Sequence record: NC_052662.1
DNA length: 64,000 nt
Strand: one strand, 5' to 3'
Source: Escherichia phage Mt1B1_P17
This document shows positions 1,642 to 16,190 of this stretch, piece after piece. A model generated the notes under the pieces. The model searched no databases, was not told the origin of the DNA, and was given only the letters and a program-made list of their open reading frames with translations. How positions within the stretch are numbered: the first letter of the stretch is position 1; each line of letters begins with the position of its first letter. A program made the position numbers and the translations under genes.

Positions 1642-2298
1642 ATGACTATTAAACATATCTCTTTTGATGTATGGAACACACTGATCACAGCAAACTCCAA
1701 TTACGCAGACATGCGAGCCTGGACTATCGCAAAATATGGAGATATTACGGAAGTGGAAGCAAGAGCAGCTTATAAAAAGATCAAAAAGGAACTGGATAAT
1801 GCAGCACTTCAAGGCAAAGCCGAGTGTGCAGCATACGCCTGGGAAAGACTTGGTTCTGAACTTGGGATAACGCCTTGGAAGTCTGCAAAGCTTCGTTTCG
1901 AGTGTGAACAGTGGTTCCTTAAGTTTCCACCACACGTAGCCGTGGATCTGCCGATGTACTTGCTGTATCTTTCAGGGCGTTATGATTTGAGTATTAAGAG
2001 CAATACCAACTTCATATCAGGGGATATCCTGCGTCGTGCTTGTAAGTTTGATAGTTGGAATTGTTTTGAGTTCACCCATTTCTCGGATGAAGCTTTACTT
2101 TGTAAACCAGATCCGCGATTCTTTGCTCGCACGCTCACGTATTCTCCGATCCCTCTGTTAGGGCACGAAGTGTTGCACGTAGGCGATAGTGAAGAATATG
2201 ATGGAAAATGTGTTGACTTAGGATTTAACTTCTGTCATATTAAGAACCCTAACGACTTACTAGAGAAACTTAAAAGAGGAGAAATTGTAAATGCGTAA
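1642..2298 (+). CDS. HAD-superfamily hydrolase-like protein
   Basis: Motif I-like FDVWNTL (second Asp replaced by Trp), motif III KPDPRFF, motif IV GDSEEYD. Confidence 0.5.
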   Translation: MTIKHISFDVWNTLITANSNYADMRAWTIAKYGDITEVEARAAYKKIKKELDNAALQGKAECAAYAWERLGSELGITPWKSAKLRFECEQWFLKFPPHVAVDLPMYLLYLSGRYDLSIKSNTNFISGDILRRACKFDSWNCFEFTHFSDEALLCKPDPRFFARTLTYSPIPLLGHEVLHVGDSEEYDGKCVDLGFNFCHIKNPNDLLEKLKRGEIVNA

Positions 2299-3118
2299 TC
2301 AAACTCAAATTTTTGCAAATAAATTTGATGACCTGGAAACTGCTACTTTTGATATCCAAGATTATTCAAAATTAAAATTTGGTAGTAACCAAGCTGCGCG
2401 TCGTATGGGTAAAGAATTAGCACTTCAGTTTTTTGCTCAAGTGGCAATGAAACATATTGGGGAACAATTTGTTATCATTCCTTCTCCTTATAACCATGTG
2501 CATAATGCTGCAACAATGATGACAGATCATTTTATTAATTATTTTAATATGTTGCAATCACAATATGATCAAGGTCGTTCAGCAGAACTGGACATTATTC
2601 ATCGTAAAGTTAGCTATATCAACGATTATGGTTTCTTGGATAAAGCTAGTCGTAAGAAACTTATTGATGGGGATACATTCTACTGCAACAAAGAATTCTG
2701 GGGTGATAAGAAGCTTGTATTCATTGATGATGTAAATATCACTGGAACGCATGAAGACAAACTGATTGAGATCCTTGATGAAAATCAAGTTAAAAATGAT
2801 GTTTACTTCTTGTATTTTGCAAAATACGAAGGTAATCAAGCAGATACCGAAGCTAAACTGAATTTTAACTACATTAATACACCAGAAGCGTTTGTTAAAA
2901 TGATTAATGAAGAACGTGATGCACAGTGTCTTGTTCGTCCTATTAAGTATCTTATGGGCCAAAATCATGAAGACTTCAAAATCATTCTTAGCCAATTGCC
3001 ACATTACTATGTAGAGCAACTTTTCTTTGGATGTTTGGGAGAAGGTTACAACCGAATTTCAAAGTATGCTGAAAACTTTGAATTCTTGGATCGTTACACA
3101 AAACAACACATTCTGTAA
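2291..3118 (+). CDS. Phosphoribosyltransferase-like protein
   Basis: PRPP-binding-type motif VFIDDVNITGT; start overlaps HAD gene stop by 8 nt. Confidence 0.45.
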   Translation: MRNQTQIFANKFDDLETATFDIQDYSKLKFGSNQAARRMGKELALQFFAQVAMKHIGEQFVIIPSPYNHVHNAATMMTDHFINYFNMLQSQYDQGRSAELDIIHRKVSYINDYGFLDKASRKKLIDGDTFYCNKEFWGDKKLVFIDDVNITGTHEDKLIEILDENQVKNDVYFLYFAKYEGNQADTEAKLNFNYINTPEAFVKMINEERDAQCLVRPIKYLMGQNHEDFKIILSQLPHYYVEQLFFGCLGEGYNRISKYAENFEFLDRYTKQHIL

Positions 3119-3132
3119 TAAGGAGCTAAAAA

Positions 3133-3606
3133 ATGCTTAAAATGAAAAGAGGTAATCTTATTGATGCCGCTAAAGCAGGTGAAGTAACTGTTATTGCTCA
3201 TTGTTGCAACTGTATGTGTAATATGGGGGCAGGTATTGCCCCACAAATCAAACAAGCATTTCCTTACGCATATGCAGCAGACTTAGACACAATGGCTGGT
3301 GATCAAAGTAAACTAGGTTGTTTTAGTTTAGGGGTGCCAGACGAACAATCAGACCCTTTGGTATATAATCTATACGGGCAATACCGTTACGGATACAATG
3401 CTAAAGGTCGTCAGTTGGACTATGATGCACTTTACGATGCACTAATAGCTATGGCTAACGATTTGCTTCTCCGTGACCAAAAATGTAAGATCGGCTTACC
3501 TATGATTGGCGCTGGATATGCTGGAGGTAATTGGGCTATCATCCAAGTGATGATTGAAGAAACTTTAGTAAAAACAGGTCACGATGTGACTATTTATAAA
3601 CTTTAA
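3133..3606 (+). CDS. Macrodomain protein, TARG1/OARD1-like
   Basis: AHCCNCMCNMGAGIA and LPMIGAGYAGGNW...VTIY segments resemble TARG1 as recalled from memory. Confidence 0.65.
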   Translation: MLKMKRGNLIDAAKAGEVTVIAHCCNCMCNMGAGIAPQIKQAFPYAYAADLDTMAGDQSKLGCFSLGVPDEQSDPLVYNLYGQYRYGYNAKGRQLDYDALYDALIAMANDLLLRDQKCKIGLPMIGAGYAGGNWAIIQVMIEETLVKTGHDVTIYKL

Positions 3607-3618
3607 GAGGAGATTAGT

Positions 3619-3840
3619 ATGGGTGTTTTTGCAGGTATTGTTGCAGTGGTAAGCTTTTTTGTTATTGCTTTTATGCTTAGTTTGATTCCAGCTTGGTTAC
3701 TGTTGCTGGCTTACAACTATGTTGCTGAAGTTATGGGTCATGCAGATATCACTGTCCCAGTAACCTTCTGGACCGTGGTTTGTGTTTCGTTTATTCTGGC
3801 TGTATTACGAGGAATCTTTTCCTCTCATTCAACAAAATAA
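3619..3840 (+). CDS. Small membrane protein
   Basis: 73 aa, two to three hydrophobic helices; RBS GAGGAG. Confidence 0.4.
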   Translation: MGVFAGIVAVVSFFVIAFMLSLIPAWLLLLAYNYVAEVMGHADITVPVTFWTVVCVSFILAVLRGIFSSHSTK

Positions 3841-3843
3841 GTG

Positions 3844-3871
3844 TTGACATAGTTCTTAAAAAGAGTAAGAT
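3844..3871 (+). promoter_or_regulatory. Putative sigma70-like promoter upstream of TerC gene
   Basis: TTGACA, 16 nt spacer, TAAGAT. Confidence 0.35.
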
Positions 3872-3919
3872 ATATCACATGAAGCGGGGAATAGTTCCCC
3901 GCAAAGAGAGGAGAAAAGA

Positions 3920-4894
3920 ATGCAACTTGGTTTCCCAATTATTGATGTAGTTGTTTTAGTTGGTATTTTAGCATTGTCTATTGGTATTGATTTCTTTGGT
4001 CACAAAGAAAATAAAGAAATTTCATTCAAATCCGCAGTTGGTTGGTCGATCTTTTGGATTGGTGTATCATTAGCTTATTATGGTTTTGTATACTTCCAAC
4101 ATGGTGCCGATTTTGCTAACTTGTTTTTAAGTGGATATGTGTTGGAAAAATCTTTGTCGGTAGATAACTTAGTAGTATTTGTAGCAGTATTCGCAAGTTT
4201 TGGTATTAAAAGCACACACTTGCAGCACAAGATTCTACTTTGGGGTATTGCAGGTGCGATTGTCTTCCGAGGTGTGTTTGTAGCAGTAGGCACTTACTTG
4301 TTAAGTTTGGGCTGGTATGTTAATATCTTCTTCGGTGCGGTCATCCTTTTCTGTGCAGCTAAAATGGTATTTGCTGGAGATAATGACGCAGAAGTTGATT
4401 ACTCTAAACACTGGGCTACCCGTATTGTTCGTAAACTGTTCCCTGTATCTAATAAAATGGATGGGGAGAAGTTCTTCACAATCGAAAATGGTGTTCGTGT
4501 AGCAACTCCAGCTTTGGTTTGCGTATTCGTGATGGAAATGGTTGATGTAATCTTTGCAGTAGATTCTGTTCCGGCAGTGATCGCAGTAACACAAGAACCT
4601 CTGCTTGTATTCTCTTCGATGTTATGTGCAATCTTAGGTCTACGTGCTCTGTTCTTTGTTCTTAGTGTTGCACTGAAGTATCTGGTTCACTTGGAGAAAG
4701 CAGTTATTGTGGTTCTGGTGTTTGTAGGTGTTAAACTGATGTATCACCCGTTTGCAGAAACGTTACATGAAAAAATGAGCTTCCTGCCAGCGCACATTGA
4801 TCCAACTATTAGTATGTATATTGTCCTGGGCACATTAGCTCTTGGTGTTATTGCAAGCTTTATCTTCCCTGAAAAAGAAGAAGCTACTGTTTAA
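3920..4894 (+). CDS. terC: TerC-family integral membrane protein
   Basis: Multiple TM helices; signature segment YVLEKSLSVDNLVVF typical of TerC family. Confidence 0.7.
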   Translation: MQLGFPIIDVVVLVGILALSIGIDFFGHKENKEISFKSAVGWSIFWIGVSLAYYGFVYFQHGADFANLFLSGYVLEKSLSVDNLVVFVAVFASFGIKSTHLQHKILLWGIAGAIVFRGVFVAVGTYLLSLGWYVNIFFGAVILFCAAKMVFAGDNDAEVDYSKHWATRIVRKLFPVSNKMDGEKFFTIENGVRVATPALVCVFVMEMVDVIFAVDSVPAVIAVTQEPLLVFSSMLCAILGLRALFFVLSVALKYLVHLEKAVIVVLVFVGVKLMYHPFAETLHEKMSFLPAHIDPTISMYIVLGTLALGVIASFIFPEKEEATV

Positions 4895-5922: not shown

Positions 5923-6516
5923 ATGACAATTTCTATTCGTACTTCCATTACAGGTGTTAAAAGTTTGCCTAATGCTTTGCAAATCACACGTGCTTTGAGG
6001 GATACGTTCTCTGCTGTGGATGAGCATAAGATGCTCGATAATCTCTCAAATTGGCCCTATTTCCATTATTTTAAAAATGAAGACGACGAGTTTATAGACG
6101 CTGTTTCTTACGGTTATGATTTCGGTAAGGAGGTTTCCCCTGAAGAATTTGTAGCTACGGTGTTCCCAAACGGTTTGCCTACTCGCAGTAAACGTAAAAA
6201 AGGACCAAAAAACAAGAAACGTGCTACTAATAAAGCTACCATTTTCTTTACTGATGGCACACAATATACGATTAAAGATTTTGAAGAGGTATCTTATACA
6301 GCAGGTGGGAGTCTTTCTTTCTACACCATCAAAAAACAAAACTATACGTTCAGCCATGTTTCTAACATGATTGAAATGTTAGTAGAAGATATTGAAAGCG
6401 TGGCTGTGTTAGGTATGCATAAAAGCTTTTTAATTACAAATATTTCAGATTTCAGTGCAAGTTTATCTGGCCCTGATTTTGAAGCCACGACCACGCATTT
6501 CGCTTTTAAGGTGTAA
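5923..6516 (+). CDS. Hypothetical protein
   Basis: ORF, 197 aa; basic KRKKGPKNKKR patch. Confidence 0.45.
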   Translation: MTISIRTSITGVKSLPNALQITRALRDTFSAVDEHKMLDNLSNWPYFHYFKNEDDEFIDAVSYGYDFGKEVSPEEFVATVFPNGLPTRSKRKKGPKNKKRATNKATIFFTDGTQYTIKDFEEVSYTAGGSLSFYTIKKQNYTFSHVSNMIEMLVEDIESVAVLGMHKSFLITNISDFSASLSGPDFEATTTHFAFKV

Positions 6517-6519
6517 GTT

Positions 6520-7110
6520 ATGCATACCGAGAGAGACTTGCAACTCTTGTGGTGGGAAGTGATGCAGGAAATAAAAGAAGATTTTCCTGTTTACTACAAC
6601 ATGTTACGTGAAGCAGGATATAAAGCTTGTGTTAGAAACAAAGTGAATAACTCTTTCGGTTGGTGCAACTACCGAGATAAAATTGTTGTTGTAAATTGGC
6701 ACTTGCATAAGAACTCCACAAGAGATATGATCGTGGATACAATGAAGCACGAAATTGCTCATGCTATTGATGGTTGTATGGGTAAGTTTAGTAGACACGG
6801 TGCTCATTGGCAAAAACTGGCAGCAGAGTTAGGGGCTAATCCTAAAGCCACTTCCAAAGAGCCGTTGAACCACGAATATAAATATGTTCTTGTTCTGGTA
6901 GATAGGTTTGCGACAAGATGTGTTAGAGGTTATAATCGTAAACCTAATCGCATGTACCCAGGTAAGCAACCTAATATGTGGTTGAAATCAGATAAAGAAG
7001 GGACCGAAGGAAAATTATGGTTGTATAAATGGGACGATTGGGTTAAAGTAGCTAAAGAGTACGGTGTTTCACCATATATAAGAGATGCAGAAGAGGAGAA
7101 TGAAGAATGA
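6520..7110 (+). CDS. SprT-like zinc metallopeptidase
   Basis: HEIAHAI (HExxH) followed by GAHWQKLAAELGA, typical SprT-like arrangement. Confidence 0.55.
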   Translation: MHTERDLQLLWWEVMQEIKEDFPVYYNMLREAGYKACVRNKVNNSFGWCNYRDKIVVVNWHLHKNSTRDMIVDTMKHEIAHAIDGCMGKFSRHGAHWQKLAAELGANPKATSKEPLNHEYKYVLVLVDRFATRCVRGYNRKPNRMYPGKQPNMWLKSDKEGTEGKLWLYKWDDWVKVAKEYGVSPYIRDAEEENEE

Positions 7111-8219
7111 CAAGTCCATTTTTAAAAGCAGCTACTGGCGGTCAGAAGAAGCCTGAAATGAGCGTATTTGCTGCAACAACAGATGCAAGTAAATCTGTAT
7201 TCGCTCCAAGCGTGTTAGATGCCAGTCCTGTTTATGCACCAGCGGCACCGCAAGAAGTTCCAGTTTTGCCTTCTATGACCCGACAAGAGATCGAAGAGAT
7301 TGGGGCAGAGGCAGGAACAACCTTGCGTTCCTTGAATGCCGAGGTGTTAAAACATCAACGTAGTAATCAAGGCGATCAGATGAGTGAACGACTCACAGCT
7401 TTGATTAAACAGGCAAAACAACTTGATCCAAACTCTATTAAACAAAGCAAAGGTATTACTAAACTCATTAAAAAAGTTATGGGTATGAAAGAAGACCTGT
7501 TCGGGGAGTTTGATAATGTTAATAACCGTATTGAAGAGTTGGTAAAGAACCTTCAAATGGATATTCGCAAAGAAGAAGATTCCTTGGTATATCTTGAAAA
7601 GCTACATCAAGCTATTGGACAATATGCTGCAAGTTTGAACCGAGATATGCAGCTTCTAACAGCAACCTATGAAAAAGAAGAACAAGCTTTGGCTGCTCTT
7701 CCAGAAGATGCAGTAGAACAGCGACAAGTGATCCGAGATACTTTGGATCTCTTGGAGATTCGTATTGCAGATTTAAAAGCATTGCGCCTACTGTGTGTCC
7801 AAATGGGACCGCGTGTACAAGGTATGCAAAAAGTTTCTGCAAGCTTAATGCGATCTGCGCGTAACATAGTAAATAATGTTATTCCTGCTTACTCTGCTAA
7901 CTTCTCAATGTATATCGAGAGCTTACGTCAAATGAAAGCAGCAGAGACGCAGAATAACGTTCTTGATGAATTTAACCTGGCAATTAAACTGGGTAGCGAT
8001 CTTGCCACACAGAATCAGATCGAAGCAGCAGCACTGGCTAACCGTCAAGTGTTGGATATTGAAACTCTGCGTCACGATCAGGAAAACTTGGTTAAGATGT
8101 TGGAAGAAACTAACCGCATCAATACGGAAGCCCGTGCTGCTCGTGTTGATTATATTAATGAAGTTCAATCTCTGGAAGACGGGATGGTAGCTGCTGTGAA
8201 ACGAGGGCTTGGTAAATGA
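7107..8219 (+). CDS. TelA-like (toxic anion resistance family) protein, tentative
   Basis: About 370 aa, largely helical/coiled-coil, size and composition fit TelA; no unique motif confirmed. Confidence 0.35.
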   Translation: MTSPFLKAATGGQKKPEMSVFAATTDASKSVFAPSVLDASPVYAPAAPQEVPVLPSMTRQEIEEIGAEAGTTLRSLNAEVLKHQRSNQGDQMSERLTALIKQAKQLDPNSIKQSKGITKLIKKVMGMKEDLFGEFDNVNNRIEELVKNLQMDIRKEEDSLVYLEKLHQAIGQYAASLNRDMQLLTATYEKEEQALAALPEDAVEQRQVIRDTLDLLEIRIADLKALRLLCVQMGPRVQGMQKVSASLMRSARNIVNNVIPAYSANFSMYIESLRQMKAAETQNNVLDEFNLAIKLGSDLATQNQIEAAALANRQVLDIETLRHDQENLVKMLEETNRINTEARAARVDYINEVQSLEDGMVAAVKRGLGK

Positions 8220-8416
8220 GAATCCGTATCTATATAATTGATGAGGACATTGGTGTCCGTTATGATGACGAAAAACGATTCGCGCCGATGGGAGGTATAT
8301 ATCCCCCAAGTGTTCTAGCAGTTTGTCGTGATTGTTATATTTATGAAGGTTGTCGTAACTTCCGTAAATTCGAACTCCTTGCAGATATTGACTTCAATGA
8401 GGAGGAGGAGGAGTAA
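8216..8416 (+). CDS. Hypothetical protein with acidic C-terminus
   Basis: 66 aa ORF ending EEEEE. Confidence 0.35.
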   Translation: MRIRIYIIDEDIGVRYDDEKRFAPMGGIYPPSVLAVCRDCYIYEGCRNFRKFELLADIDFNEEEEE

Positions 8417-8589
8417 TGAAAATACTACGAGTGAATATTGAAACTGCTTGGTGTGGATGCAATGAGGTTGTGGATATCGAAATTGAAGATGATATGTCTC
8501 AAGAGGATATAGAAGATCTTGCACACGAAACCTTTCAGGATTATTGTAATTACGGGTTCCATATTTTAGAGGAGGAAGAAGATGTATAA
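8416..8589 (+). CDS. Hypothetical small protein, 57 aa
   Basis: ATG overlaps previous stop (TAATG); below the ORF-track size cutoff; found by manual translation. Confidence 0.3.
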   Translation: MKILRVNIETAWCGCNEVVDIEIEDDMSQEDIEDLAHETFQDYCNYGFHILEEEEDV

Positions 8590-8980
8590 TCCAACAGGTA
8601 TTCTTTTAAAACTTACAGTAACAGACCCTACTCTTTTCACTAAGTTAGCAAGTGGTGAAGTTTATGAAGTAATGAAAGATGGTGACGGTTGGTGTTATCT
8701 TTGTGGCTACTTCCTCTGTGATGCAGAAGAGTTAGAGTCCATTGTAACTAAAGGTTTTTATGAAGAACCAGGGTTCCGTGTGGAAACTACGCAGAAACCT
8801 GATACCATTACGCTGACTCGACAGGAACTGATCACAATCATTGAAGATGCTTTTATTGATGGCTGGAATACACAAGATAATGACTGGGGTGGACCCGAAG
8901 CTTTTCTGGAACATCATAAAGCTTATGGAGAATTTTGTGAAACCACTGTAGCTCTTGATAATCTGAAGGAGGGTTTGTAA
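8582..8980 (+). CDS. Hypothetical protein
   Basis: ORF, 132 aa; RBS GAGGAGGAAG. Confidence 0.45.
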   Translation: MYNPTGILLKLTVTDPTLFTKLASGEVYEVMKDGDGWCYLCGYFLCDAEELESIVTKGFYEEPGFRVETTQKPDTITLTRQELITIIEDAFIDGWNTQDNDWGGPEAFLEHHKAYGEFCETTVALDNLKEGL

Positions 8981-9543
8981 TGGGTTGTTTTAGCTTTTTG
9001 TGCAAAGAATCGGGCAAAGCTGCCCTTTCTACTTCTTTCGACGGATCACCTTGCTACCTCTTTCTTTTGAAGGACGGTGTTGTTATTGAAGAGATGTATG
9101 GCAACTATGATAGTTATGGTTGTGTTTTCTCTGGAAAGGAGGATGAAAATGGTGTTCGTGAACGATTTGAATGGGCTATGGATTGGAGTAAGGTTTGTGA
9201 TTTGATGCATTCCTCAAATCCAAGGGACGGTATCGCTATGGTGCTGGAAGAGTACTTTACAGGTGAAATCCCTACAGAACAATCTGACGGAGATCCTAAC
9301 CAAGGTTGGGGTGATGGTGAAGAAGATCCAGATTGTTTTTTCAGCACAGAAAAGAATAAGTTTAAACGTGTTGACAACCCTTATCACAAAGTGCATAATA
9401 CTCTCATTGAAACAAAAGATGACAAGATGGAAATTGAAGAAGATGATCCTCTTGTAACACTTCCTATAAGTGAGTTACAAAAGATCACTAAGGAAGCTTA
9501 CGATTTGGGCTTCAAAATTGGTAGAGGAGGTATGCGTGTTTAG
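8980..9543 (+). CDS. Hypothetical protein
   Basis: ORF, 187 aa. Confidence 0.45.
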   Translation: MGCFSFLCKESGKAALSTSFDGSPCYLFLLKDGVVIEEMYGNYDSYGCVFSGKEDENGVRERFEWAMDWSKVCDLMHSSNPRDGIAMVLEEYFTGEIPTEQSDGDPNQGWGDGEEDPDCFFSTEKNKFKRVDNPYHKVHNTLIETKDDKMEIEEDDPLVTLPISELQKITKEAYDLGFKIGRGGMRV

Positions 9544-9814
9544 ATTCAATATTCAAGAAGAAAAAAGTCAGGATTTACCTATTGCTTTCGAAGATCTTGA
9601 CGTAGGGGCCACATTCATGTATTATGATGCCTATGAAGACGCAGGGTTGGATACCTACCGTAACTTGGTGTTCATTAAAAATTCCACAAACAGTGCGATT
9701 TGTATTAATGGATCACTAGCACAACGAGGCTATACTCATTGCATCCCACCAGATACAAATATGGTGGAAGTAGATTTAGAAGTTACCAATATTACACTTA
9801 AGAAGGAGAAATAA
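9536..9814 (+). CDS. Small protein, paralog A of duplicated cassette
   Basis: GTG start 7 nt after GAGGAGG; homologous to 10836..11105 (shared DLDVG.TF and C-terminal ITLK). Confidence 0.45.
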   Translation: MFRFNIQEEKSQDLPIAFEDLDVGATFMYYDAYEDAGLDTYRNLVFIKNSTNSAICINGSLAQRGYTHCIPPDTNMVEVDLEVTNITLKKEK

Positions 9815-9815
9815 T

Positions 9816-10610
9816 ATGTCCGAGAAAATCAGCCTGAAAAAACGTCAAGAAAACCTTGCTTTCTCTCTGAAAAAGAATAAGAACCTGAATGAAGGTAAGA
9901 TTGTTCTTCGTGTAGCATGTGCTCTAGATATTTCTGGTAGTATGCATGGTCTATATTCTAGTGGGGTAGTGAGTGATTTTGTAGGTAAACTGCTTCCTTT
10001 TGGTATGCTGTTCGACGATAATCAACAAATTGATATGTGGGCCTTCAATACGAGTTCCCAAGAGCTTACTCCAGCAACAGCAGACGTTTACGATGACTAT
10101 GTTGGTAAATGTATGCGTAATGTTCGTATCGGAGGTGGAACAAATTACGCCCCTGTAATGGCAGATATCTACGATGAGTATTTTGGCACTGTTACCAAAT
10201 ATATTACCACTAAACAAGTGGTACAAGAGGAGGCTCCAAAGAAAGGCTTCTTTAATCGTCTGCTTGGTAAAACTGAAACAGTGTCTGTAGAGCGTGAAAA
10301 AGTTGTAGCTGTATCTGAACCAGGTGCTGACGTTACCCCTGGTGTTGTATTCTTCCAGACGGATGGTGAGAATGGTGATCCTAGTGCTGTTCGTCGTCTT
10401 ATTGAAGAGAATAAGAATAAACCTATTTATTGGTTCATGGTTGGCGTTGGTAATGAGAAGTTTGGGTTCCTGAAAGAACTGGCAAATGCTTATGATAATG
10501 TTGGTTTTATTGGCATTAAAGATTTAGACTTGACAGATTCAGAGCTTTATGACAAACTCTTATCTGAAGAGTTCGGAGAGTGGGTTGTTAAAGTAGGTGC
10601 TAAAAAATGA
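9816..10610 (+). CDS. von Willebrand factor A domain protein (TerY-like)
   Basis: MIDAS DISGS, downstream GGGTNYAPV and FFQTDGENGD motifs; N-terminus KISLKK like TerD proteins. Confidence 0.6.
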   Translation: MSEKISLKKRQENLAFSLKKNKNLNEGKIVLRVACALDISGSMHGLYSSGVVSDFVGKLLPFGMLFDDNQQIDMWAFNTSSQELTPATADVYDDYVGKCMRNVRIGGGTNYAPVMADIYDEYFGTVTKYITTKQVVQEEAPKKGFFNRLLGKTETVSVEREKVVAVSEPGADVTPGVVFFQTDGENGDPSAVRRLIEENKNKPIYWFMVGVGNEKFGFLKELANAYDNVGFIGIKDLDLTDSELYDKLLSEEFGEWVVKVGAKK

Positions 10611-10855
10611 TCGACGAGCTTGCCTCTCAAGTCATAGAAAATTATTGGCGCGAGAGAGAAGCTTTCATTATGCGCAGTCTCAAAGAGTATTTCATTGGGA
10701 CTGTGCGAATGGAAGATATTGTAAGTAGAGTGGAGATTCATGTATGGCCCGATTATGAAGAATGGGTTGACAAAGAAAATGAAAATGCTATAATTCTTCG
10801 TATATACAAACCGGAGATAACATTAGGAGGAAGAAGTGTTAAACTTCGAAATTGA
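10607..10855 (+). CDS. Hypothetical protein
   Basis: ORF, 82 aa. Confidence 0.4.
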   Translation: MIDELASQVIENYWREREAFIMRSLKEYFIGTVRMEDIVSRVEIHVWPDYEEWVDKENENAIILRIYKPEITLGGRSVKLRN

Positions 10856-11105
10856 TGAGCAAAAAGTAAATAAACGATGCCTTACCATTAAAGATTTGGA
10901 TGTAGGAGATACTTTCGTCTATGAAAATGCATTTGACGAAAATGGTTTAGACCTTAGTGAAATCATTGTTTATTTAAAAGTAGATGATGGGGAAAATGAT
11001 TATTCTGCTGTAGAACTAAACCATCATGCACAATTAGTATCAATCCAAAACACATCTAAGCTTTTGGAAGTAGAATTGACTGTAACTGGTATTACACTTA
11101 AATAA
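10836..11105 (+). CDS. Small protein, paralog B of duplicated cassette
   Basis: GTG start after AGGAGG; homologous to 9536..9814. Confidence 0.45.
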   Translation: MLNFEIDEQKVNKRCLTIKDLDVGDTFVYENAFDENGLDLSEIIVYLKVDDGENDYSAVELNHHAQLVSIQNTSKLLEVELTVTGITLK

Positions 11106-11120
11106 TAGAGGAGACAAAAG

Positions 11121-11723
11121 ATGACTGATAAAATTTCCCTGAAAAAAGGCTCTAGCGAAAAAATTTCCCTGAAGAAAGTTGCTCCGGCTCTGAAAGAACT
11201 GCGCCTGGAATTCTCTTGGAAATCTGATTCTAAACTGGATCTGGATGTAAGTGCACTGGTTTGTCGTCACAATGCCGCTGGTAATCCTGAAATGCTGTCT
11301 GCACGTCATCTGGTTTGCTATGCTAACAAGTTTGATCCTGAACGTTCTACCTTCGCTGGTGACGATGTTCGTGATGGAACTGGCAGCATGGAGCAGATTG
11401 ATATTACTCTGGCTAAAATCTCTCCTGATGCACAAGAGATTGCCTTTGTTCTGACCATTGATGATGATACAGGTCTGAAACGTTTTGGTCATGCTTCTGA
11501 AGGTATGCTTAAAATCTTCGACTCCGAGCGCAATGTGGAAATTCTGGATTTTGACTTCCTGGCTCCTGAAGTAGCTGGCAACACAATCTGCCACGTGGCT
11601 TCCTTGGTTCGTGAAGATGGGGAATGGAAGCTGAAAGCATATGGTGTAGGTAAAGCTGGTCTGGATATTTGTGATGTGGTGATGGCCTTCGGTGGTAAAA
11701 AAGAATGGTATGAATGTCCATAA
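11121..11723 (+). CDS. terD: TerD-domain protein
   Basis: N-terminal KISLKK repeated twice; acidic segments FAGDDVRDGTGS and LTIDDD fit TerD Ca-binding regions. Confidence 0.6.
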   Translation: MTDKISLKKGSSEKISLKKVAPALKELRLEFSWKSDSKLDLDVSALVCRHNAAGNPEMLSARHLVCYANKFDPERSTFAGDDVRDGTGSMEQIDITLAKISPDAQEIAFVLTIDDDTGLKRFGHASEGMLKIFDSERNVEILDFDFLAPEVAGNTICHVASLVREDGEWKLKAYGVGKAGLDICDVVMAFGGKKEWYECP

Positions 11724-11741
11724 TAATTAACAAATGATTTT

Positions 11742-11761
11742 GAGGGGGAGAAATCCCCCTC
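11742..11761. repeat. Palindromic GC hairpin element, copy 1
   Basis: GAGGGGGA-GAAA-TCCCCCTC; near-identical copy at 30063..30080. Confidence 0.5.
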
Positions 11762-11790
11762 TTGCAATAAAGCCTCTATCGTGTTATACT
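11762..11790 (+). promoter_or_regulatory. Putative sigma70-like promoter
   Basis: TTGCAA, 17 nt spacer, TATACT, upstream of cell wall hydrolase gene. Confidence 0.5.
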
Positions 11791-11822
11791 AGAAATTCGT
11801 TAACTTAAAAAGGAGGCAAAAT

Positions 11823-12344
11823 TTGCTGATAAAAAACTTTGTAACAGTTGCGTTACTATCCTTAACTGCTTTTACATTTACACCTGTTGTGGCGAAAGCC
11901 GAAGCTGCAAACGTAAAAACCGCTAAAGTAGTTCACAAATGTACAAAGCAATATAATGATAAAATTCTATTAGCTTGTGCAATTTACGCAGAAGGTCGTG
12001 GTCTGGGTAAAAAAGGAATGAATGCCGTTGGGAATGTGGTAATCAACAGAAGAAATGATACCTACTTCCCTAACACAGTCAGAGGAGTCTTGTTCCAGAA
12101 AGGACAATTCTCATATGCGAAAACTTTTAACGTAACAGAGAAAGATAAGTGGCAGGAAGCAAAAGCAATAGCGGAGCGTTTACTTTATTTAGAGAAACAT
12201 TTTCCTGAATTGCGGTCTGTTTTAGATGTTACTAAAGGTGCTCTATACTTCAAGAAACGGAATATAAGGACACACTGGGAACGTGATATGCGTCTTGTTT
12301 ATCGAGATAAAGTGCATGGTTTCTATCTACCAAAGGGGAGTTAA
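11823..12344 (+). CDS. Secreted cell wall hydrolase, SleB-like (candidate lysin)
   Basis: TTG start after AGGAGG; signal peptide ending AKAEA; core CAIYAEGRG...VINRRND...GQFS. Confidence 0.55.
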   Translation: MLIKNFVTVALLSLTAFTFTPVVAKAEAANVKTAKVVHKCTKQYNDKILLACAIYAEGRGLGKKGMNAVGNVVINRRNDTYFPNTVRGVLFQKGQFSYAKTFNVTEKDKWQEAKAIAERLLYLEKHFPELRSVLDVTKGALYFKKRNIRTHWERDMRLVYRDKVHGFYLPKGS

Positions 12345-12345
12345 A

Positions 12346-12630
12346 ATGCAAGAAGATAATACTGTTGTTGTAGCAAGTTACCTGGTTGTCGGTCTTACCG
12401 AAGAAGACGTATACTACACCCGTAAGCATTTGGAAGCATACGCTACTTTGTTTATGGAAGATGAAAAGGATGTAGATAAATATAGCATTGATATGATCAA
12501 CGACAGTATTTATCCTTGTATGGTTCTTAAAGTAGATGCTGTGTTGTGGGAGCGTTTTGCAAGGACTCATGATGCTGTAGAATGCTCCGCAGTAATGTCT
12601 CAAAACAACATTTTAGGGGAGATTCATTGA
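12346..12630 (+). CDS. Hypothetical protein
   Basis: ORF from ATG after GGGGAG RBS; 94 aa. Confidence 0.4.
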   Translation: MQEDNTVVVASYLVVGLTEEDVYYTRKHLEAYATLFMEDEKDVDKYSIDMINDSIYPCMVLKVDAVLWERFARTHDAVECSAVMSQNNILGEIH

Positions 12631-13617: not shown

Positions 13618-14301
13618 ATGGAAAATATTAAAATTGGAGTGGGTGTTATCACTGTAGGTGTCCGTCCACTTAAAGACTACCTTGTAACAGATCCACGTGC
13701 AGATTTTCGAGTATTCAACGATCCAGATCGTAAAGGTGTAGCTTATGCCAGGAATGAACTTATGCACCAGTTTTATGAAGAAGGTTATGATTATTGGTTT
13801 ATTTTTGACGACGATTGCTACCCAGTCATGGAGGGATGGGAAACATACTTTGTAGATCAAGCTGTCTCTGGAGGATGGGATTTCTTTGGTATGCCGGAGT
13901 ATTTCAAAGATAAAGTTGTTGGAAGCAAAGGAGAAGTTATTCTCTGGGAACTTGCAATGTGTCAATTTGCAATGTATTCTCGTGCCGTTGTTGAGAAGAT
14001 GGGTTATTTCCGTCCTTACACTCACGGCTATGGTTTTGAAGATGCTGAATGGGGACACCGTTTGCAAGCTGCTGGTTTGAATCATGGTATTCAGGCAACA
14101 CCTTGTCCACTTCGTATCATGGCTTATATCCACCCAGACGATGTTTTTGGAAACAACCCTATGCCTTTTGCTAATCTGACAAAAGAAGAGAAAGAAGCTG
14201 CTATCGGGATTAACTGGGAAGAATATAAAGCATCTTTAGAGGATATTAAAAATGGGAAAATCCGAATTTCCTATGAGGAGGCACTGGCACATGTCAAATA
14301 A
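13618..14301 (+). CDS. Glycosyltransferase, GT-A-like
   Basis: FIFDDDCYP (DxD) and GYGFEDAEW segments. Confidence 0.45.
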   Translation: MENIKIGVGVITVGVRPLKDYLVTDPRADFRVFNDPDRKGVAYARNELMHQFYEEGYDYWFIFDDDCYPVMEGWETYFVDQAVSGGWDFFGMPEYFKDKVVGSKGEVILWELAMCQFAMYSRAVVEKMGYFRPYTHGYGFEDAEWGHRLQAAGLNHGIQATPCPLRIMAYIHPDDVFGNNPMPFANLTKEEKEAAIGINWEEYKASLEDIKNGKIRISYEEALAHVK

Positions 14302-15238
14302 AAAATGGTCTAAACTAAAAATTGATGCAAAACCTCATAGCGGTTGTGACTATCATCGTATTGTTATGCCATTTAACAACAATAATTTTCAACCTAAGAA
14401 AGATATTGTTGTGTTTAACCGTATCCACTCTAAAGGTGCAGAATACGTTTTATCTTTGAAACGTCAAGGTGTTAAGGTTGTTGTAGATTTAGATGATTTT
14501 TACCAACTTAATCCAGAGCATTATTTAGCAAGTCTATACGAGTCAAACACTCATGCTATTGTAGCTATGGTTAAGCTTGCTGATGTGGTTATTGTGACTA
14601 CAGAATATTTGGCATATAAGATCCGTCACTTAAATAGAAATGTCGTTGTGATCCGAAATGCACTTCCTTTTGATAGCGGACAATTCACTTTGTCAAATGA
14701 TCGTTCATCCGGTACCCCTGTTGTATGGGCTGGCGGTGCTAGTCACGAACCAGATTTACGACTAGTCTCTAATACTTTCGATGATGAACTTCTTACTATT
14801 GCGGGATATGAAGCATCACAAAGCATCACGGGACAAGAGTGGATTAAGATTCGCAGAAATTTACCAAATGCCAAATATAAAGCTGCTGTAAAAGATTTAG
14901 ATAATTACATGAGTGTTTACGAAAGTCATGCTATTGCTATAGCTCCTTTGGTAGACAATGATTTTAATAATTGTAAAAGTAATCTCAAAATCCTGGAAGC
15001 TGGAGCAAAAGGTATTCCGATTGTTTGTTCTAAGGTATTACCTTATTTTAACCCTGTAGATGCTCGCGCTGTTGCTTACGCAGAGAATAAAGCAGAATGG
15101 CATTACGAAATTGTTAAGCTTCTTCGCAATCCAAACTATCGGGAAGATCGTGGCTTGTTCTTGGCTGAACATGTTCGAACACATTATAATCTGGCAGATG
15201 CAAACGAGTTGCGACGCCAGGTTATTGAAAGTTTGTAG
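14291..15238 (+). CDS. Glycosyltransferase, GT-B-like, paralog 1
   Basis: SNLKILEAGAKGIPIVCS C-terminal motif; paralogous to 15246..16190. Confidence 0.45.
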   Translation: MSNKKWSKLKIDAKPHSGCDYHRIVMPFNNNNFQPKKDIVVFNRIHSKGAEYVLSLKRQGVKVVVDLDDFYQLNPEHYLASLYESNTHAIVAMVKLADVVIVTTEYLAYKIRHLNRNVVVIRNALPFDSGQFTLSNDRSSGTPVVWAGGASHEPDLRLVSNTFDDELLTIAGYEASQSITGQEWIKIRRNLPNAKYKAAVKDLDNYMSVYESHAIAIAPLVDNDFNNCKSNLKILEAGAKGIPIVCSKVLPYFNPVDARAVAYAENKAEWHYEIVKLLRNPNYREDRGLFLAEHVRTHYNLADANELRRQVIESL

Positions 15239-15245
15239 GTGAAGT

Positions 15246-16190
15246 ATGGGACAAATAATTCTTGACAATCGTAACGGAATCAATTATAGTGTCTGCGATT
15301 TCCATAGGGTAGTGCTGCCTTACTCAAGGCAGTTCTCTTCACAACCTAAATACAACGTTTTCGTTTTTAACGGAGTGCCAACAAAAGGTAAAGAGGGCTT
15401 TTTAGCCCTTAAAAACCTAGGCTTTAAAATGGTTATGGATTTGGATGACTCTTTAGTTATTCCAAAAGGACACATGTTAGAAGGTATTTTTGAATCAGGT
15501 ATTCGTGAACATTTAAAATGGTTTTTAGAGCACAGTGATCTTGTTACAACTACGACACCTGCCTTGCAAGTTGAACTTTCACAATACAATGATAATGTGC
15601 ACATAATCCCTAATGGACTTCCTTATGATGAAGGTCAATTTGTGTTGACCCGTGATCGCTACTCCAAAACTCCATTAGTCTGGGCTGGAAGTGAAACACA
15701 TAAACAAGATTTGGCTATCTTGCCCGATTTTGGTAAAGATCTTACAATATGTGGTTTTCGTAGGGATTCTGAAGTTTTAAGTAGTCGTGAATGGTCTGTA
15801 ATCAGAGAAAATGTAGCACCAACTTGTGTTTATGAAGGTGTAAGACCATATGCCAACTACATGGAATCTTACGATGGTCATCAAATCAGTCTTGCGCCAT
15901 TGATTGATAACGTGTTTAATAATGCAAAAAGCAATCTTAAAATTCTTGAGGCAGGTGCTAAGGGTTTACCTTTGATCTGTTCTCCTCGTGAGAATTATCA
16001 TACACAAGAGTTTAAAGATTTGTTATTCTTTGCTGAAACACCTTCCGAGTGGAAAGATATTACGGAATACTTATTAAGTGCTCCCGATGTTTGCATGGAG
16101 AAAGGATTAGCATTAGCTAAGTATGTCAGGACTCATTATCACATTGATGTGTTGAATGAGCGTCGTAGACTTTTATTTGAGGAGCTATAA
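15246..16190 (+). CDS. Glycosyltransferase, GT-B-like, paralog 2
   Basis: SNLKILEAGAKGLPLICS; shared CD(Y/F)HR, DLDD and VWAG segments with the upstream paralog. Confidence 0.45.
   Translation: MGQIILDNRNGINYSVCDFHRVVLPYSRQFSSQPKYNVFVFNGVPTKGKEGFLALKNLGFKMVMDLDDSLVIPKGHMLEGIFESGIREHLKWFLEHSDLVTTTTPALQVELSQYNDNVHIIPNGLPYDEGQFVLTRDRYSKTPLVWAGSETHKQDLAILPDFGKDLTICGFRRDSEVLSSREWSVIRENVAPTCVYEGVRPYANYMESYDGHQISLAPLIDNVFNNAKSNLKILEAGAKGLPLICSPRENYHTQEFKDLLFFAETPSEWKDITEYLLSAPDVCMEKGLALAKYVRTHYHIDVLNERRRLLFEEL

Follow-up and report, generated by a model that had tools for sequence, protein, structure and literature searches.

Two small paralogous genes upstream of the vWA and TerD genes in the Ter region of Escherichia phage Mt1B1_P17

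The locus and the surrounding Ter genes

Two small paralogous genes, small1 and small2, lie directly upstream of two tellurite-resistance-type (Ter) genes in Escherichia phage Mt1B1_P17 (NC_052662.1), of which a stretch of 64,000 nucleotides was analysed (the window). All of the genes treated here are on the + strand. The gene order begins with orf187 (8980–9543), the 3′ end of which is overlapped by small1 (9536–9814); small1 starts with a GTG inside the end of orf187 and encodes an A-type acidic protein of 92 amino acids with a predicted SH3-like β-barrel. It is followed by the gene for a 264-aa TerF-type vWA protein (9816–10610), by orf82 (10607–10855), which overlaps both the vWA stop and the small2 start, by small2 (10836–11105), a GTG-initiated B-type paralog of small1 that encodes 89 residues, and by the gene for a 200-aa TerD-domain protein (11121–11723). 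A GC-rich hairpin separates TerD from a SleB-type endolysin gene. Judged by gene content, the region from 9371 to 11761 is the 3′ end of a fairly complete phage-borne Ter system in a 150-kb, non-jumbo phage, and this 2.5-kb region is 99.3–99.8% identical to that of many phAPEC8-like Escherichia phages (Phapecoctavirus, Stephanstirmvirinae).

The assignment of the two larger genes rests on Pfam matches well above the cutoffs. The vWA protein matches PF10138 (E 1.6e-37, 130.1 bits versus a cutoff of 29.4) and carries a MIDAS-type DxSGS motif, ALDISGSM at residues 36–43, that is kept in homologs. Residues 5–179 of the TerD protein match positions 3–177 of the 187-position profile PF02342 (E 3.2e-28, 98.9 bits versus a cutoff of 25.3). 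TerC, TelA, TerD, the TerF-type vWA protein, a PRTase and a HAD protein are co-located on one strand within ~10 kb. Upstream of the vWA and TerD genes are found a HAD-like hydrolase (1642–2298, a weak match at 4e-4) and a ComF-like PRTase_3 (2291–3118, PF15610 at 2.2e-41), which together constitute the Ter-associated metabolite module, the TerC membrane protein (3920–4894, PF03741, E 9.9e-39), a SprT-like metallopeptidase with an HEIAH motif (6520–7110, PF10263, E 4.2e-9) and a 370-aa TelA (7107–8219, PF05816, E 3.2e-33; phrog_5890, “tellurite resistance”). A Macro-domain protein is also encoded in this upstream stretch, which spans 1642–4894. The same Ter gene order is observed in the related loci L002–L005 and L020. 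A PADLOC search with eight operon proteins gave no defence-system match, except for a marginal SspF match of the SprT-like protein, and an Rfam scan of 6000–12500 gave no RNA family.

Ter systems occur widely in bacteria and phages and on plasmids; their mechanism is obscure, and their presumed role is protection against chemical stress and incoming phages. A hub of TerC, TerD, TerF-type vWA and TelA proteins, joined by a PRTase and HAD metabolite module, is reportedly the core of the Ter stress-response and exclusion system delineated by Anantharaman, Iyer and Aravind in 2012.

In phages, both abbreviated and fairly complete Ter operons have been described from jumbo and “certain other related smaller” tailed phages, and the passages concerned propose a role against superinfecting phages (Iyer et al. 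2021, PMC7824862). A Ter operon is also present in Klebsiella phage phiKp34, according to the passage of PMC8386662 that deals with it, and gp172, gp173 and gp178 of phage phi92 were auto-annotated as Ter proteins (PMC4690881). The window contains the same component set as the “relatively complete” phage systems of the relevant passages of PMC7824862. It differs in the Macro domain, which is not among the Ter components named in those passages, and in the two small-family copies directly 5′ of the vWA and TerD genes, which are mentioned neither there nor in the corresponding passage of PMC8386662. The phage Ter operon is thus already known, and what is undescribed is the small accessory family in two positional paralogs. 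For the phAPEC8- and phi92-type genomes used in phage therapy, the region is benign and already annotated in part.

The small proteins and their distribution

As stated in a preliminary description of this DNA, small1 and small2 are paralogs. BLASTP aligns the two proteins end to end (34% identity across an alignment of 93 columns, E 2e-14), so that the likeness is not confined to low-complexity N-termini, and both match the same PHROG, phrog_11278 (4e-51 for small1 and 7e-45 for small2). The GTG starts and the shared DLDVG.TF core given in that description are present in both genes, and each GTG is preceded by a strong Shine–Dalgarno (SD) sequence, GAGGAGG at 9525–9531 for small1 and AGGAGG at 10824–10829 for small2. 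The common C terminus ITLK that it ascribed to both proteins is found at the very end of small2, whereas small1 extends further, to ITLKKEK. Members of the family are 87–93 residues long and have a net charge of -2 to -11, and the pattern F..L..G.TF...GLD....K...A..LN persists down to 23–30% identity. Compared with their counterparts in phage phiWec181, small1 and small2 are 52% and 43% identical, and TerD is 91% identical; the dN/dS of the small genes is 0.2–0.36 versus 0.05 for TerD, and their dN is 0.41–0.51 versus 0.05, which amounts to ~10-fold faster nonsynonymous change. By these rates, small1 and small2 are real genes under purifying but relaxed selection. In Escherichia phage EF1-1 (PQ571289.1, L001 6071–6413), which is otherwise 99% identical, the small1 ortholog is split over two frames, by a frameshift or a sequencing error, and its annotation begins at an internal ATG and covers 65 aa. 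In this record the small2 ortholog is named “RNA ligase”, a label without support in this analysis.

Structure prediction of the small paralogs, which had been put forward as a check, was carried out for small1 with AlphaFold2. An alignment of nine sequences alone gave a pLDDT of 39, and a compact fold was predicted with confidence once divergent metagenomic members were added to the alignment. From this model, the family may adopt an SH3-like barrel, a generic architecture that can be likened to the SH3-like domain of ribosomal L2, the C-terminal domain of DtxR/IdeR, FeoA, the KOW domain of EF-P/eIF5A, Tudor domains and HspQ. Foldseek gave no match to the model in the PDB, and in BFVD it returned only the small family itself and weak matches to uncharacterised phage proteins. 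In the representative search, giant bacterial Ig-repeat proteins scored as homologs with E-values as low as 6e-25 (P0074, P0076, P0078–P0086 and others). These were rejected because they come from other repeat families (He_PIG, DUF11 and HYR), because as many as 22 short matches to a “vGDTFxY”-like strand motif, which corresponds to the “DLDVGDTFxY” segment, add up to their scores, and because the predicted fold of the small protein is a small barrel rather than an Ig sandwich; the similarity was judged to be a motif-level artefact that inflates the E-values. A literature search returned nothing on the small family or on the Ter genes of Phapecoctavirus. The family is phage-restricted, fast-evolving and without a described function.

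By tblastn, the family is present in 125 phage records, and these are without exception of the Stephanstirmvirinae type. Two copies are found in 63 phAPEC8-like genomes (the 95–99% identity band) and in phiWec181/PsgM04F, and one copy is found in phi92-like genomes and in Klebsiella phage 05F01. Exhaustive searching of 1.84 billion representatives with HMMER added only ~12–14 standalone divergent clusters, of 87–93 residues. The family was not found in the phage loci L002, L003 and L004 with a local HMM, nor in 23 bacterial vWA–TerF loci, and a local HMM census of the window gave no third copy. A scan of IMG/VR with P0089 returned one spurious high-GC locus, L017, without Ter genes, and a scan with P0093 returned none. 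Some records that match this Escherichia coli phage locus carry the host names Campylobacter, Acinetobacter (vB_AbaM_ABPW7), Pseudomonas (PsgM04F) and Klebsiella (ZCKP1). ABPW7 is 99.8% identical in DNA, the small1 protein has 98.9% identity in Campylobacter phage B15 and in ZCKP1, and PsgM04F is more distant, with 43% identity to small2; these host labels look doubtful or may signal contaminating coliphages.

Every member of the family for which the context was read (the window and about 17 independent loci) lies on the same strand, 0–35 nt 5′ of a vWA or a TerD gene. The A position, directly 5′ of vWA, is occupied in phi92 (gp174), 05F01 and L013/L014, with a spacing of 1 nt or an overlap, and the B position, directly 5′ of TerD, is occupied in phiWec181, L009, L018/L020, L010, L011, L012, L015 and L016, with a spacing of 11–35 nt. 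Three diverged two-copy lineages, represented by the window, phiWec181/L009 and L018/L020, have the same order of A copy, vWA, an ORF of 80–82 residues, B copy and TerD. This ORF, orf82 in the window (phrog_22387 at 8e-58), is present only in the two-copy, Phapecoctavirus-like lineages; its counterparts in L007, L009, L018 and L020 are 80–81 residues long, and that of phiWec181 is 58.5% identical. The possibility that orf82 is a remnant of a duplicated orf187 was rejected, because the two have no homology (E 0.056).

In a neighbour-joining tree of these ~90-aa proteins, with 300 bootstraps, the A copies of the Phapecoctavirus two-copy lineages and phi92 form one clade (91%), the Phapecoctavirus B copies a second (79%) and the distant B-only members a third (95%), and the A and B copies of the window never pair. 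Between small1 and small2, dS is ~1.3 and dN is 0.78, and the A–B dS of 1.3–2.7 across three genomes is saturated; the duplication is therefore old. Because the A and B copies each group across lineages, the duplication would also predate the divergence of these phage lineages. On the tree and the substitution rates, small1 and small2 are old paralogs and not each other's closest relatives. Lineages with a single copy or none may reflect loss, or the second copy may have arrived by recombination.

Expression units and a putative accessory role

Each small gene is preceded by a promoter-like site. The upstream site, P1 (9371–9399, + strand), reads TTGACA-17-CATAAT, scores 11/12 in a consensus scan and lies inside orf187, 137 nt 5′ of small1. 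Its hexamers are identical in phi92, and it is kept as TTGACA-17-GATAAT in an intergenic region of phiWec181 (L007 2146–2174), where orf187 is absent; P1, a putative promoter, thus appears to be conserved independently of its host ORF. The second site, P2 (10767–10794, + strand), has the perfect extended σ70 consensus TTGACA-16(TG)-TATAAT and lies in the 3′ part of orf82, 42 nt 5′ of small2. It is the sole exact match to TTGACA-N15-19-TATAAT in the window (expected 0.06) and is kept in L001, L007 (phiWec181) and L009, with no other block of its stretch as well conserved; it suggests strong transcription of small2 and TerD by the host RNA polymerase. In phi92, which has no small2, TTGACT-17-TAAAAT is present in the vWA–TerD spacer. 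Downstream of TerD, the hairpin GAGGGGGA-GAAA-TCCCCCTC (11742–11761, + strand; fold -18.5 kcal/mol, z -2.5) is a possible terminator; its U tract is weak, and a terminator scan made no call for it. Between TerD and the endolysin gene, phi92 (gp171, L006 5288–5890) and L004 (7428–8051) have an extra gene of ~200 residues that is absent from the window. Taken together, these elements would divide the region into two expression units, one consisting of P1, small1 and vWA, followed by orf82, and the other consisting of P2, small2, TerD and the hairpin. Since P1 and P2 are conserved before the small genes, each small gene would be the first cistron and a Ter hub gene the second.

We consider it fairly probable that the locus as a whole is the 3′ end of a Ter system built of two like units, in which the old small paralogs serve as accessory subunits. 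The small proteins, which are acidic and have a predicted SH3-like barrel fold, would be co-produced with the downstream partner through tight translational coupling. They would probably bind the vWA and TerD proteins, possibly through the basic N-terminal motif that the two share (the first 25 residues carry a charge of +5 in vWA and +5 in TerD), and would help to assemble or regulate a Ter complex that, following the model outlined in the published passages, would act at the membrane in superinfection exclusion or stress protection. This proposal is based on the strict positional linkage over deep divergence, the translational coupling and the charge complementarity. If the small proteins bind the N-terminal motif, they would be useful probes of Ter complex assembly; otherwise, they are another uncharacterised phage family.

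Several observations weigh against this proposal. Acidity is common to other small ORFs of the operon, so that charge complementarity is weak evidence. The promoters and the terminator were recognised by consensus and conservation, not by mapping of transcript ends. There are related phages that manage with a single small gene or without any, so the small proteins would be dispensable for the core Ter hub. The A|B split has a support of only 60% in the neighbour-joining tree of ~90-aa proteins, and the locus is mosaic, in that small1 is nearer to phi92 than to phiWec181, and TerD and TelA show the opposite. Because of the mosaic gene trees and the 60% support, duplication in situ and lateral acquisition of the second copy are indistinguishable.

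A lateral origin is possible, if somewhat doubtful. Here a different phage lineage, in which the small gene already stood 5′ of TerD, would have donated orf82, P2 and the B-type small gene as one module through recombination, and the module would have entered the ancestor of Phapecoctavirus between its vWA and TerD genes. Lineages with only a B copy do exist (L010, L016 and L012), orf82 and P2 occur only alongside small2 in the two-copy lineages, and in phi92, the closest single-copy relative, vWA and TerD are separated only by the promoter-bearing spacer. In addition, the small2 region has the lowest GC content of the locus (0.32), and the identities across the locus are mosaic. The B-only lineages, however, lack orf82, no donor of the whole module was found, and the B copy of the window is only 28–32% identical to the B-only copies. 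The A copy of phi92 also nests in the two-copy A clade, and loss of the B copy in phi92 fits equally well.

The small proteins might instead be independent morons, for example with anti-defence or host-takeover functions, that happen to be carried in the Ter operon and are functionally unconnected with vWA and TerD. Their small size, acidity, fast evolution and restriction to phages agree with this idea, as do their absence from the 23 bacterial Ter loci and their dispensability in some relatives. We regard it as unlikely, given that in all of the contexts read the family members are found just in front of vWA or TerD and in no other place; free riders would seldom keep so strict a position over such deep divergence. 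Another reading is to view the A- and B-type barrels as dedicated adaptors, one per client, that recognise the basic, paired [IV]SLKK motif at the N-termini of TerD and vWA as a common docking tag for building the Ter complex; each adaptor would be transcribed together with its client and coupled to it in translation. This is likewise an improbable reading in so specific a form; if true, it would provide the first concrete handle on the assembly or regulation of the Ter hub proteins.

A role in cis is still less likely. The small ORFs would then act mainly as translated leaders for the vWA and TerD starts, and their products would have no function of their own. The very tight spacing, in particular of the A copies, the position of the vWA SD within the last codons of small1 and the fast evolution of the protein sequences are all consistent with a leader. 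Nevertheless, length and motif pattern are kept across the family at 23–30% identity, dN/dS is below 1, and the compact fold is predicted with confidence. Moreover, vWA and TerD have good SDs of their own and are putatively expressed without leaders in L002 and L004.

The N-terminal motif of the partners and the junction sequences

The preliminary description also drew attention to the KISLKK starts of the two partner proteins, and these are present: the vWA product starts with MSEKISLKK at an ATG (9816) 1 nt past the small1 stop, and the TerD product starts with MTDKISLKK at an ATG (11121) 15 nt past the small2 stop. In 14 related loci, every vWA and TerD ortholog starts with M..K[IV]SLKK after an AGGAGA-type SD. 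This start is independent of the small genes, as it is also present in L002 and L004, which have none, and in phi92 (L006), 05F01 (L008) and L010, which have one.

In TerD, the motif occurs as a pair. Similar to the phage protein, the TerD protein of Klebsiella pneumoniae (2kxt/2kxv) and a TerD-like protein of Streptomyces (3ibz) are collinear over ~178 residues (5–183; E 1.5e-15 and 2.9e-14), and their N-terminal VSLSKGGNVSLSK (VSLSKGG-NVSLSK) aligns to the KISLKK...KISLKK segment of the phage TerD, ISLKKGSSEKISLKK. In the phage protein, by contrast, the two N-terminal units are set apart by an insertion of 2 residues, and its versions of the motif are lysine-rich. The pair [IV]SLxK...[IV]SLxK is conserved in 14 phage orthologs, and because it aligns to the N-termini of solved TerD structures, the apparent internal tandem would be the ancestral start of the domain. 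In an alignment view, the Ca2+-binding acidic motifs look only partly conserved, with “gddvrdgtgsme” aligned to “gdnrtgegdgdde”.

In the vWA protein, the Pfam match begins at residue 31, and the 30 N-terminal residues before it, KISLKKRQENLAFSLKK, are conserved in all phage homologs. A comparable [IV]xLxK...[IV]xLxK segment recurs before the vWA domain of bacterial standalone proteins, for example SINLKKQAAKIVLEKK, and as the linker of TerD–vWA fusions, for example ISLSKQRLISLEKTAP. These TerF-type fusions (P0068–P0071; Paenibacillus and Acinetobacter loci L025 and L038) contain the same PF10138 vWA domain, preceded by [IV]xLxK...[IV]SLxK units as in the phage vWA N terminus. Unlike in the fusions, TerD and vWA are separate genes in the phage, with vWA first. 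By these alignments, K[IV]SLKK is the canonical paired motif of TerD and a family-wide N-terminal extension of TerF-type vWA domains, an ancient motif that the two share beyond the limits of the vWA Pfam model. The vWA and TerD genes are directly adjacent in L002, L003 and L004, where there is no small gene; the vWA–TerD pair is therefore independent of the small genes.

The junction DNA is repeated in part. The word ATTACACTTAA occurs exactly twice in the 64 kb, at 9791 and 11091 (expected 0.08), which agrees with the repeated junction DNA noted in the preliminary description; the ATTTCCCTGAAAAAAG of that description is not literally repeated at the first junction. There, the KISLKK-coding 18-mer of the vWA gene, AAAATCAGCCTGAAAAAA (9825–9842, + strand), has three mismatches to the TerD copy, with serine encoded by AGC rather than TCC. 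The 18-mer of the TerD gene, AAAATTTCCCTGAAAAAA, is exact at 11130–11147 and recurs with one mismatch at 11160–11177 (both + strand), and these two copies encode the paired motif at the start of the domain that corresponds to VSLSK...VSLSK. Two copies had indeed been reported; the copies are not in tandem, being 30 nt apart, a 10-codon period, rather than head to tail, and TRF found no tandem array. With three occurrences within three mismatches (expected 0.36), the 18-mer is commoner than expected by chance, as is the first word. An SD, an ATG and K[IV]SLKK precede or begin vWA and TerD also in L002 and L004, which have no small gene, and in L006, L008 and L010, which have one. Because the likeness is found without small genes, it would reflect constraint, namely an SD, an ATG and the same basic peptide with AAA lysine codons, and not a duplication scar. 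A -1 frameshift at CTGAAAAAAG was considered and rejected, since the A-run reads AAA AAA after a G and is not an A_AAA_AAG heptamer in the 0 frame.

These comparisons bear on the origin proposed in the preliminary description, a recent segmental duplication of one cassette, a small gene and a gene with a KISLKK start, whose downstream copies then diverged into vWA and TerD. The paralogy of the small genes, the ~1300-nt register of the two units, the SD, ATG and KISLKK coding common to both junctions and the promoter in both units are in its favour, but it is hardly credible, as homology is found for the upstream genes only: BLASTP aligns vWA and TerD over residues 1–29 alone (E 0.013), with the likeness ending after ~20 residues, the same junction and N terminus occur without small genes, and the paralogs, with saturated dS, group by position across genomes and not within a genome. 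The domain assignments place vWA and TerD in unrelated families, both of which have separate orthologs in bacteria, and exclude a homologous core. The analysis thus removes a single-cassette origin of the vWA and TerD genes and replaces it with a testable architecture of two promoter-driven units, in each of which a fast-evolving small protein would be matched to a single protein of the Ter hub.

Other repeats and neighbouring genes are observed in the window. The vWA gene contains an internal repeat (10071–10105 and 10152–10186, 81 nt apart, 74% DNA identity) that encodes PATADVYDDYVG and PVMADIYDEYFG, and both copies are conserved in homologs. A radical-SAM/Fer4_12 protein (E 3e-42) is encoded at 344–814, 5′ of the Ter genes, and may be an NrdG- or QueE-like activase. 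A few kb downstream of the locus, the adjacent glycosyltransferase-like genes at 14252–15238 and 15246–16190 are tandem paralogs (41% identity over 303 residues, E 7e-77) and, by this similarity, are a genuine tandem gene duplication.

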